32,604 nt of DNA, from contig CANRPQ010000002.1 in the NCBI GenBank assembly GCA_947632525.1, positions 1 to 32,604 of the forward strand, read 5' to 3'. The notes under the pieces are model-generated. The model was not told the DNA's origin, ran no database searches, and was given only the letters and a program-made list of their open reading frames with translations. The translations under genes and the position numbers were made by a program. Of this stretch, positions 7,824 to 18,304 are shown piece after piece; position 1 is the first letter of the stretch; each line of letters opens with the position of its first letter. This DNA comes from an uncultured Clostridia bacterium. GTDB taxonomy: Bacteria > Bacillota > Clostridia > TANB77 > CAG-508.

Positions 7824-7890
7824 AAGTCAGAAATCGGAAGTCAGAGATTAAAAATCAATGTAATGTTGATTTCCGATTTCTGACTTTTTA
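7824..7890 (+). terminator. Long compound stem-loop terminator
   Basis: aagtcagaaatcgga (7824-7838) pairs with tccgatttctgactt (7872-7886). An inner hairpin aaatcaa/ttgattt lies between them, and TTTT follows. Confidence 0.65.
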
Positions 7891-15612: not shown

Positions 15613-15646
15613 AAGTAATGTTTCAAACGGACAAGGGAGTGAAAAA

Positions 15647-17079: not shown

Positions 17080-18159
17080 ATGGCTGTAAAAAAAGAAGAT
17101 ATAGTTATTACAGAAGTGCTAAAAATGATTGCGCCAGGTACACCAATTCGTGACGGATTAGAAAACATTTTAAAAGCAAAAACCGGTGCATTAATAGTCA
17201 TTGGAGATACAAAAGAAGTACTTGATTTAGTAGATGGTGGTTTTAAATTAGATATAGATTATACATCTTCTAGATTATATGAGCTTGCTAAAATGGATGG
17301 TGCTATAGTTTTAAGTAGTGATTTCAAAAAAATTCTATATGCAAATGCACAGTTAATTCCATCTTCAAACATCAGCACAACAGAAACAGGTACAAGACAT
17401 CGTACAGCCGAGCGTACAGCCAAACAAACTGGTGCTTTAGTCATTAGTATTTCACAAAGAAGAGGTGTTATTACTATATTTAAAGGAAATTGCCGCTATG
17501 TATTAGAAGACACATCAAAGGTAATAACAAAAGCAAACCAAGCATTACAAACTGTAGAAAAATATAAGAAAGTATTTGATGATAAATTAAGTTTATTAAA
17601 TGAATATGAATTTAATGATATAGTTACATTAGAAAATGTAATTAACAGTATTCAACGTGCCGAAATGGTAATGAAGGTAGTTGAAGAAGTTCAAAAAGCA
17701 GTATATGAGTTAGGAGAAGAGGGCAGATTATTAGATATGCAATTAGAGGAATTAACAGGTGATTTGGAAACAGAAGAATTACTTATTATCAAAGATTATA
17801 TTGCTCCTGGCAAAAAACGTGCAGCAGAAAAGATATTAGAAGAAATTAGAAAATTAGAACACGACGATTTATTAGTAACAGAAAAAATTGCAAAACATCT
17901 TGGATATGGTGACTTTGACAACTATGATGAAGTAGGAGTATATACTAGAGGGTATCGTGTATTAAATAAAATTCCAAGAATGCCAAGCAATATTGTAGAA
18001 AACTTAATTAGAAGTTTTAAATCTTTCCAACACATATTAGCAGCAGACTTGCAACAACTAGATGATGTTGACGGTATAGGAGAGATAAGAGCGCGTACTA
18101 TTAGACAATCTTTAAATCGTATGCAAGAGCAATTTGTATTTGACAATTTAATAATGTAA
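17080..18159 (+). CDS. disA: DNA integrity scanning protein DisA (diadenylate cyclase)
   Basis: DAC domain motifs (GALIVIGD, DGAIVL, TGTRHRTAER), a C-terminal HhH (GIGEIRARTI) and the classical radA-disA pairing. Confidence 0.93.
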   Translation: MAVKKEDIVITEVLKMIAPGTPIRDGLENILKAKTGALIVIGDTKEVLDLVDGGFKLDIDYTSSRLYELAKMDGAIVLSSDFKKILYANAQLIPSSNISTTETGTRHRTAERTAKQTGALVISISQRRGVITIFKGNCRYVLEDTSKVITKANQALQTVEKYKKVFDDKLSLLNEYEFNDIVTLENVINSIQRAEMVMKVVEEVQKAVYELGEEGRLLDMQLEELTGDLETEELLIIKDYIAPGKKRAAEKILEEIRKLEHDDLLVTEKIAKHLGYGDFDNYDEVGVYTRGYRVLNKIPRMPSNIVENLIRSFKSFQHILAADLQQLDDVDGIGEIRARTIRQSLNRMQEQFVFDNLIM

Positions 18160-18182
18160 TTATATAATTTATAATCATTATG

Positions 18183-18304
18183 TTTTTTTAGTAAACTATA
18201 TCATTTTGTAGTGAAACGAGGTATAGGGAATGCCCGTAGGGCAAGGGACCCTGTAGCGGAGCGTCCGAAGTGGAACGAAAAAATCATATAGTTTACTAAA
18301 AAAT
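18183..18304. repeat. Long imperfect hairpin: AT-rich palindromic arms enclosing a conserved GC-rich ~87-nt core (copy 1; candidate ncRNA or miniature insertion)
   Basis: Arms tttttttagtaaactatatcatttt (18183-18207) and aaaatcatatagtttactaaaaaa (about 18280-18304) are inverted repeats with one mismatch. The core 18197-18283 recurs inverted at 30718-30804 with 5 differences. Confidence 0.7.

Follow-up and report, generated by a model that had tools for sequence, protein, structure and literature searches.

The 32,604-nt stretch analysed here (the window; positions 1 to 32,604 of contig CANRPQ010000002.1, from an uncultured Clostridia bacterium) contains a GC-rich core that stands at the apex of an AT-rich palindrome between disA and a peptidyl-prolyl isomerase (PPIase) gene and recurs, in reverse complement, at the apex of an unrelated palindrome between nrnA and truB. 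The core belongs to a low-copy family that has not been described before. We propose that it behaves as a non-autonomous structured unit, either mobile or copy-converted, that occupies hairpin loops, a reading that we hold tentatively, at a probability of about 0.4. The members form a family with a covarying fold and an asymmetry between strands, lie in distinct palindromes, are inverted between strains at one locus and are absent from relatives at both window loci. The family rests on four to five sequences.

Two copies of the core in unrelated palindromes

Pairwise alignment of copy 1 (18197-18283, forward strand) with the reverse complement of copy 2 (30718-30804) gives 82 identical nucleotides out of 87 (94%), in agreement with the repeat and the number of differences given in the original prediction. 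The five differences are at 18214 (A in copy 1, G in copy 2), 18235 (C/T), 18237 (T/A), 18239 (G/A) and 18276 (C/A). Three of the five lie within one small hairpin and two of these preserve its closing pair, C:G becoming U:A, so that the compensatory change from GCCC-GUA-GGGC to GCCU-GAA-AGGC noted at the outset is genuine, and the CGGA-GCG-UCCG hairpin and UAUAGGG/CCCUGUA helix are, as claimed, the same in both copies. The cores reach 62-68% G+C over 40 nt in a window of 29% G+C, and a degenerate 54-nt core pattern matches the window twice (0 matches in 100 shuffles). No third copy was found in the window with filters off, nor in the 7.8 kb past the window end. The sequence GGAACGAAAAAAT at 23202-23238, upstream of the rimP promoter, is the same as the copy 1 3' tail and scores 14 bits (E = 0.34) against the model, a match that is probably due to chance.

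The arms enclosing each core form an inverted repeat peculiar to the locus. At copy 1, TTTTTTAGTAAACTATAT (18184-18201) pairs with 18286-18303 as a perfect 18-bp inverted repeat that extends to 29 nt at 90%, while at copy 2, AAAATGTTGTATATAT (30701-30716) pairs with 30800-30815 (a right arm previously misplaced at 30801-30816) over a perfect 16 bp that extends to 22 nt at 95%. The arms are unrelated between these two loci, with 9 of the 14 modelled arm pairs differing despite the 94% core identity, and the inverted-repeat comparison upholds the view that the flanks mirror each other within a locus and lack similarity between loci. Without the arms the folding of the core is not exceptional (z about -1.6 against shuffles), whereas with the arms z falls to -5 to -7, so the strong fold is owed to the arms and not to the core alone.

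Within P1, the helix formed by the arms, the outer 9-13 bp are locus-specific and the inner 11-12 bp (TATAT-N-ATTTT / AAAAT-N-ATATA) are kept across the family, the four core-proximal TATA pairs and the ATTTT/AAAAT pairs being invariant in four members. Since the inner arms are conserved across the family they are part of the element and not of the target. The elements measure 85-115 nt without arms and 110-145 nt with them. The parts of the two window copies are as follows.

18184..18201, forward strand: copy 1 5' arm of P1, consisting of the outer locus-specific TTTTTTAGTAAAC (18184-18196) and the inner family-conserved TATAT (18197-18201)
18202..18221, forward strand: copy 1 5' junction box CATTTTGTAGTGAAACGAGG, in which ATTTT lengthens P1 and UGRARCGAGGU is family-conserved in the alignments
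18222..18255, forward strand: copy 1 variable hairpin P2, with outer helix UAUAGGG/CCCUGUA and inner UGCCC-GUA-GGGCA
18257..18267, forward strand: copy 1 invariant hairpin P3, CGGA-GCG-UCCG, with a conserved UAG directly before it
18268..18285, forward strand: copy 1 3' tail AAGUGGAACGAAAAAAUC, in which the A run pairs with the 5' ATTTT
18286..18303, forward strand: copy 1 3' arm of P1, with ATATA, GTTTACT and AAAAAA in order
30701..30815, reverse (structured) strand: copy 2 whole element, an inverted repeat, 119 bits with model R3 (E = 4.5e-20)
Copy 2 5' side, reverse strand in forward coordinates: 5' arm 30800-30815, 5' box 30780-30799, P2 30746-30779
Copy 2 3' side, reverse strand in forward coordinates: P3 30734-30744, tail 30717-30733, 3' arm 30701-30716

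Members of the family in related genomes

No close copy was found in 80 disA loci from GTDB genomes (1.33 Mb), and the disA-PPIase spacers of these relatives are about 20 to 190 nt long and without a palindrome. The core is likewise absent from the disA-PPIase spacers of the genomes designated L109, L107, L012, L013 and others. Closer relatives, among them L106, were reached via protein search. L106 and the more distant L052 both hold members, each within a different palindrome as had been anticipated, so that the description of a two-copy family no longer stands.

In L106 (DisA 92% identical, disA 86.7% identical in nucleotides) a diverged member occupies the same disA-PPIase spacer, its orientation and its junction TC matching those of the window. 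It was recovered with 68 bits (E = 1e-12) by model R1, which was built from the two window copies alone, and 16 of 16 pairs are standard. Relative to the window, the 5' box and the 3' box with P3 are 90-100% conserved, while the rest of the spacer is unalignable; P2 is wholly different in sequence and identical in architecture (outer UAUUUGAG/CUCAAAUA, inner UUUUAC-GUA-GUAAAA). The L106 arms are recognisably orthologous to those of copy 1, yet at this shared site, orientation and pair of junction bases both arms have changed jointly, from AGTAAACTATAT/ATATAGTTTACT in the window to TGTAAATATAT/ATATATTTACA. The earlier inference from unrelated flanks, that insertion is more likely than co-evolution of the stem, is therefore only half right, since between the window and L106 the arms have co-changed in place.

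The member in L052 (disA 70% identical in nucleotides) is found on the opposite strand in the spacer that separates a 145-aa gene from ftsK. It occupies a fourth palindrome (ATAGACGAAATATAG) and has a P2 57 nt long; it scores 82.7 bits with model R3, into which L052 was entered with a shortened P2, the native sequence then being recovered by search. In the window, a 20-nt inverted repeat at 95% (AAGTCAGAAATCGGAAGTCA / TGATTTCCGATTTCTGACTT; 7824-7886) lies just 5' of ftsK, the L052 element occupying the equivalent spacer. A distant candidate was found in L025, 5' of lexA (E = 0.0026). The element is in forward orientation 5' of the PPIase gene in the window and L106, and at the truB, ftsK and lexA loci it runs antisense to the genes on either side, so that the single functional class of downstream gene in constant orientation expected of a cis-regulatory RNA was not found among the members.

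Covariation and strand asymmetry of the fold

Covariation was assessed in an alignment (A7) of four distinct members (copy 1, copy 2, L106 and L052) over 30 modelled pairs, the alignments being fitted to the model. Paired bases occupy 99.2% of the 119 cells and 14 of the 30 pairs change on both sides; none of 500 shuffles reaches the observed values, and sliding the partners by 1-3 columns leaves 40-53% of cells paired. Covariation in the helices first proposed from the window copies is strong once the relatives are added. When P2 of the window is compared with that of L106 in a 12-pair model, all cells are paired and 7 pairs carry double-sided changes; over the four members such changes are seen in 4 of the 7 outer P2 pairs. 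P3 is identical in copy 1, copy 2 and L106 and differs in L052 only in its closing pair, C:G having become U.G. Compensated helices and conserved unpaired boxes, the marks of a structured single-stranded element, are thus both present in the four model-fitted sequences.

The two strands are not equivalent. Minimum-energy folds contain 12 G.U wobble pairs on the forward strand, that is the structured one, and 2 on the reverse. A.C mismatches do not occur, and in 5 of 5 elements the forward strand gives the stabler fold. Comparative sequence analysis points to one strand of each element folding into a three-way junction, in which P1 would form a long AT-rich helix, UGRARCGAGGU would lie at the junction, P2 would be free in sequence and length, P3 (YGGA-GCG-UCCG) would follow UAG invariantly and an A-rich tail would close the structure. 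The UGRARCGAGGU box resembles a Shine-Dalgarno sequence. The junction boxes were also considered, by eye, as a hammerhead or a K-turn, and this was set aside because consensus positions vary (UGA versus UGG), and a small open reading frame within the core (ATG CCC GUA ...) was rejected as its conservation is absent in L106.

Inversion in strain L005

The strain L005, 98% identical to the window across the locus and 99.2% within disA (one contig, 2x coverage), carries the exact reverse complement of 18184-18303, including all five copy-1-specific bases and the junction TC. Because these bases and the TC are carried along, this is the same insertion, inverted between its arms. An assembly fold-back was rejected, the 3' flank running into different sequence and not into the reverse complement of disA, and an independent insertion is unlikely given the shared five bases and junction TC. 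The C. difficile flagellar switch was first noticed by the same exact-reverse-complement signature (PMC5386303), and in chloroplast DNA loops between inverted repeats flip spontaneously, hairpin-associated small inversions being common (PMC12371153).

At 1515-1575 of the L005 contig the right arm and its flank are duplicated directly over 17 nt (TTTACTAAAAAATAAAT), and before the left arm a 9 nt longer and partly different stretch has ATAATTATTATA in place of ATG; to judge from this contig the surroundings of the palindrome are unstable in L005. Contigs of the same organism that were found through exact protein matches are short and of low coverage, and many of them end within the element. These breaks were considered as a sign of high copy number, a reading that was rejected as the break points differ from the stretches common to copies 1 and 2; they are attributed to low coverage (2-5x) over a strong hairpin.

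Genomic context and candidate empty sites

The window is a run of housekeeping genes and encodes, in order, mutL, miaA, sepF, divIVA, ftsK, an RNase J-like gene, GH15, radA, disA, PPIase, mutS2, rimP, nusA, infB, rbfA, nrnA and truB, and no transposase or recombinase gene was found in it. The promoter in front of copy 1 is as follows.

18140..18168, forward strand: sigma-70-type promoter TTGACA-17-TATAAT, 12/12 consensus, overlapping the disA stop codon, predicted start near 18175

The same TTGACA-17-TATAAT recurs outside the window in nine sequences (L005, L106, L115, L107, L108, L109, L012, L013 and L074), irrespective of what lies 3' of it, and the PPIase gene would have its own promoter within the last disA codons. 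As copy 1 lies just 3' of this consensus promoter, its forward strand is predicted to be transcribed as part of the PPIase mRNA 5' leader, which replaces the initial description of a palindrome downstream of disA. The palindrome was also considered as the disA terminator and rejected, since no U tract follows the arms, which are trailed by A-rich sequence instead. A scan of both regions found no terminator-like site at either locus, the G+C-rich stem with U tract of an intrinsic terminator being present at neither. Promoter-like boxes lie 5' of the forward strand at copy 2, and no promoter-like site lies wholly inside the core, a single 9/12 minus-strand site (18204-18177) reaching only the copy 1 arm.

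The spacers differ between relatives. The nrnA-truB spacer, which holds copy 2, is 391 nt long here and 26 nt in L024. At the PPIase leader of L115 (DisA 90%, disA 82% identical in nucleotides) a 10-bp AT hairpin, TAGCAAAAAT-ATGG-ATTTTTGTTA, stands without a core, its left arm resembling the occupied arms, and is a possible empty site; L109 has neither hairpin nor core at this position. The expectation of an empty palindrome at the orthologous site is thus partly borne out, by a candidate short hairpin that belongs to another species and may be independent or a scar.

Outside the spacers, the 3' end of the open reading frame 21682-23085 is unusually GC-rich (22980-23150, up to 68% in 40 nt) and without a Pfam match; by eye it seems to run on in a different frame to about 23148, and the gene may be frameshifted or pseudogenised.

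A nested hairpin around copy 2

Copy 2 forms the apex of a nested 266-nt hairpin (30614-30879), whose folding energy is about -100 kcal/mol for each strand. Within the outer arm, a perfect 25 bp, come in turn a GC-rich middle layer that pairs imperfectly, the perfect 16-bp inner arm and the core. The outer layers are as follows.

30614..30638 pairing with 30855..30879, no strand assigned: perfect 25-bp outer arms, with a TATAAT box in both
30639..30700 with 30816..30854, no strand assigned: GC-rich middle layer, an imperfect inverted repeat

The middle layer contains AGAGGAGCAACGTCC, which resembles the 3' box of the member in L052 weakly (p about 0.013 before correction for 8 tests), and may be an older, decayed element in whose apex copy 2 is nested. 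The motif CATAACTAGATTTGTATA occurs three times, at 30577-30594 (partial), 30614-30638 and 30855-30879, two direct and one inverted, each copy having a -10-like TATAAT or CATAAT box, which creates convergent promoter-like sites around copy 2.

Searches for known families

Scans of the window with Rfam 15 gave no match at gathering scores, and around both copies at E up to 10 gave chance-level matches only; at E up to 1 none overlapped the L052 or L106 elements. The earlier failure to recognise an Rfam family is thereby confirmed for the window, L052 and L106. The Enterococcus-1 RNA was rejected, since cmscan gave it 13.4 bits (E = 2.7), far below its gathering score of 71.4. No match was found by blastn against the PLSDB plasmids and INPHARED phages, in three scans of IMG/VR with core anchors, or in 185,579 species genomes (one per GTDB species) with the core anchor TATAGGGAA, an 8-20-nt gap and AAGGGACCCTGTA. 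In JGI metagenomes one of two anchors had no matches and the other had three chance matches in GC-rich coding DNA. A search of the literature on small elements inserting into terminators or palindromes in Firmicutes found nothing specific.

The element was also compared with the defining traits of the classes it most resembles. Measured against the terminal repeats of a miniature inverted-repeat transposable element (MITE), the members share 11-12 bp with a central mismatch, beyond which the core ends match at about 60%, and in copy number there are two copies in about 40 kb and one possible empty hairpin, in another species (L115). A repetitive extragenic palindrome (REP) is a 20-40-nt palindrome with a GTAG/GTGG head present in many copies; here GTAG precedes the 4-bp P3, but the element is long and low-copy and its stems vary. 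No cognate Y1_Tnp gene was found in the window. For an element derived from IS200/IS605 the strand-specific fold is compatible, but P2 and P3 are dissimilar and no fixed asymmetric flanking tetranucleotide was found. The recombinase with internal promoter or terminator that characterises an invertible switch was not found in the window, and the reverse orientation is known from another strain, on the one 2x contig of L005. The element falls outside every family tested and is best described as belonging to the broad class of small structured intergenic repeats.

Sister species carry, between GH15 and radA, a 260-268-aa gene of the PF01797 family (Y1_Tnp, IS200-like) bracketed by inverted hairpins, which looks like a domesticated RAYT-type gene. 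The loop of these hairpins (GGGGACGTTCC) is conserved and their stems differ between species; the equivalent empty spot in the window is 35 nt long (15613-15646). The hairpins were considered as relatives of the element and rejected, no significant similarity being found. The disA-PPIase leader of L012 (3775-3815) contains a different GC-containing hairpin, GTGTCACTATGGGGACACATGGTGACA, that resembles them.

L109, 7420-7580 and 8555-8620: hairpins flanking the Y1_Tnp gene
L107, 7360-7420 and 8540-8600: hairpins flanking the Y1_Tnp gene
L110-L112, L012, L020 and L038: such hairpins also present

Mobility and its alternatives

For a mobile or copy-converted unit the sequence of events would be that the element ends up in the loops of AT-rich hairpins within intergenic spacers, that one copying event gave rise to two 94%-identical copies in unrelated palindromes of the source genome, and that the asymmetric apex can then invert through recombination or template switching of the two arms that enclose it. 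Mobility is favoured by the near-identical cores within unrelated outer arms in one genome, by the occurrence of the element in different species, at different loci and in both orientations relative to neighbours without a gene association, and by the conserved termini, the enlarged element-bearing spacers and the possible empty hairpin. The presence and absence of the element in orthologous spacers suggests, at the level of sequence comparison, a gain in the source lineage. Two chance landings at the exact centre of a hairpin, when about 3 kb of intergenic DNA contains few hairpins, are very unlikely, so hairpin loops would be targeted or the arms built after insertion. The fold, if selected, would do its work as RNA, as single-stranded DNA while the element is copied, or as both. 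As to the enzyme, a Y1/HUH-type transposase is no more than a lead.

Several observations weigh against this reading. Copy number is low, at 2 in about 40 kb of the source genome and about 3 in 1.4 Mb around disA from >80 relatives, and no link has been made between an enzyme and the element. The shared orientation, junction TC and 90-100% conserved boxes of the window and L106 look like vertical descent with purifying selection and a host function, and what resembles transposition could be gene conversion between old paralogs. In close strains no unambiguous empty site was found; the L115 hairpin is that of another species and may have arisen independently or be a scar. ATAT or TA flanks every copy on both sides, but because it belongs to the arms and is a palindrome in its own right, a target-site duplication cannot be told apart from it. 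The excess of G.U pairs is partly expected, the forward strand having more G than C and being purine-rich.

Much of the same evidence would fit a structured non-coding RNA of the host, either a cis-acting leader of the PPIase gene or a small stand-alone RNA, inherited vertically with gene conversion of the core and with P1 as a covarying closing helix; we consider this possible though on the whole unlikely. It accounts for covariation in all variable helices, the conserved junction boxes, the concentration of wobble pairs on the forward strand and the consistently greater stability of the forward fold. It also fits the placement of the copy 1 and L106 forward strands about 15-30 nt 3' of the predicted start of a 12/12 promoter, the locus, orientation and junction that these two share with boxes far better kept than the rest of the spacer, and the promoter-like boxes at copy 2; by eye, moreover, a hairpin and T run lie just 3' of the L052 element on the forward strand, although absent from the terminator scan listing. 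Against it, 3 of 5 members (copy 2, L052 and L025) are antisense to both neighbouring genes, the L005 inversion puts the reverse strand into the PPIase leader, the associated genes are inconsistent (PPIase, truB, ftsK, lexA) and most relatives do not have the element at any of these loci. For cores to be nearly the same within unrelated arms, conversion limited to the core has to be assumed in addition, 4 of the 7 double changes in P2 between the window and L106 are transversion pairs without a wobble intermediate, which would be hard to reach gradually at 13% coding divergence, and perfect 15-24-bp arms are unusual among RNA helices. The original alternatives of a structured RNA family and an element at palindrome tips both survive and are not mutually exclusive. 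That the element belongs to a described family, as an Rfam RNA, insertion-sequence end, intron or REP or a fragment of one, is scarcely credible: the sub-threshold Enterococcus-1 match, which has long outer stems and the word AACGAGG in common with it, is all that speaks for this, against negative Rfam, PLSDB, INPHARED, IMG/VR, GTDB and JGI searches. It is very improbable, too, that there is neither function nor mobility, the palindromes being homogenised by replication template switching and the core a chance-retained duplicate fragment. Template switching between arms would produce perfect arms such as those seen, and extra direct arm copies lie nearby (30577-30594 and the 17-nt duplication in L005), but conservation of the boxes at 70-87% disA identity, covariation in P2, the invariant P3 and the same architecture at four unrelated loci are left unexplained.

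The inversion raises the further alternative of an invertible switch, with recombinase sites in the inner arms (TATATCATTTT / AAAATNATATA) and an apex that flips so that a fixed promoter reads either the G-rich or the C-rich strand and expression of the gene 3' of it changes, which we regard as improbable. The element does lie between promoter and gene with inner arms kept across loci, and its reverse strand is C-rich and G-poor (30 C against 17 G in copy 1), a composition that fits a Rho loading site (for the mechanism, PMC7446863). However, the 84 bp between the arms leave little room for recombinase synapsis, invertible switches are not marked by covarying hairpins in their interior or by strand-specific wobbles, phase variation of truB and ftsK would be odd, the window holds no recombinase gene and the inverted state is known from one instance, on a contig at 2x coverage. 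The exact reverse complement between the arms in L005 has the signature of the C. difficile flagellar switch, of which the 84 bp is about half the length (154 bp; PMC5386303), and that switch acts after transcription starts; loops of inverted repeats, on the other hand, also flip spontaneously, as in chloroplast DNA (PMC12371153). A portable flip-flop leader would combine the switch with the mobile unit, as a cassette that homes to hairpin loops 3' of promoters and whose apex inverts between the inner arms to give a G-rich folded or a C-rich Rho-open leader. This combination is a long shot.

Comparison with known elements

REP and REPIN sequences are extragenic hairpins of 20-40 nt, present in tens to hundreds of copies with conserved stems and associated with RAYT (Y1/HUH) transposases. 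The element resembles them in having GTAG by a hairpin (CUGUAG before CGGA-GCG-UCCG), in that strand-specific action as single-stranded DNA would apply to both, and in that sister species hold the PF01797 Y1_Tnp gene bracketed by inverted hairpins; it differs in its locus-specific outer stems and few copies. IS1397 and ISKpn1 home to the loops of palindromic units and elements of the IS110 family target REP sequences. What they would have in common with the element is insertion at a palindrome apex, but they are autonomous and use one palindrome family, whereas the element is non-coding and sits in unrelated palindromes. The T-shaped terminal hairpins of parvoviruses occur in flip and flop orientations as a by-product of replication and consist of a long stem capped by two small hairpins; a long stem, two cap hairpins and both orientations recur here, an analogy for the inversion only. 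AT-rich fungal mitochondrial genomes contain mobile GC clusters and double-hairpin elements in AT-rich spacers, which are likewise short GC-rich hairpin modules but differ in hosts and sequences and are without an enclosing palindrome, so that they too are an analogy only.

Closer in dimensions are the MITE-like Correia, RUP, ERIC and bcr1 elements (PMC2229807), which are also about 100 nt long, intergenic, non-coding and hairpin-forming, with near-identical copies at unrelated sites, short conserved terminal repeats and TA-rich junctions that would suit a TA or ATAT target. The element departs from them in its very low copy number, imperfect 11-12-bp termini, GC-rich covarying interior and strand-specific fold, in the placing of each copy inside a locus-specific perfect inverted repeat and in being without a known parent insertion sequence. 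The RecV switches of C. difficile (PMC5386303, PMC7446863) share a Clostridia host, a short segment between promoter and gene enclosed by inverted repeats and the exact reverse complement found in another strain, but are 150-300 bp long with unrelated interiors and a known recombinase, whereas the interior of the element is conserved and 84 bp long. The small inversions of chloroplast genomes (PMC12371153) resemble it in the asymmetric hairpin apex found in both orientations, an analogy that, these being by-products of mutation or replication in genomes of another kind, extends to the inversion only.

Significance

If the fold is real and selected, the element would be a new structured non-coding element from small-genome, uncultured gut Clostridia, which are poorly known, with an unusual architecture in which a conserved apex is carried by perfect arms that differ at every locus. 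Low-coverage metagenome assemblies break inside it, and such elements are therefore probably under-reported. Were the portable flip-flop leader true, it would constitute a transposable phase-variation switch that acts after transcription starts. More generally the family bears on how palindromes stay perfect, on whether inversion of an apex is a mutational by-product or a means of regulation, and on target choice by short non-coding repeats, the apparent target here being a hairpin loop and not a sequence.

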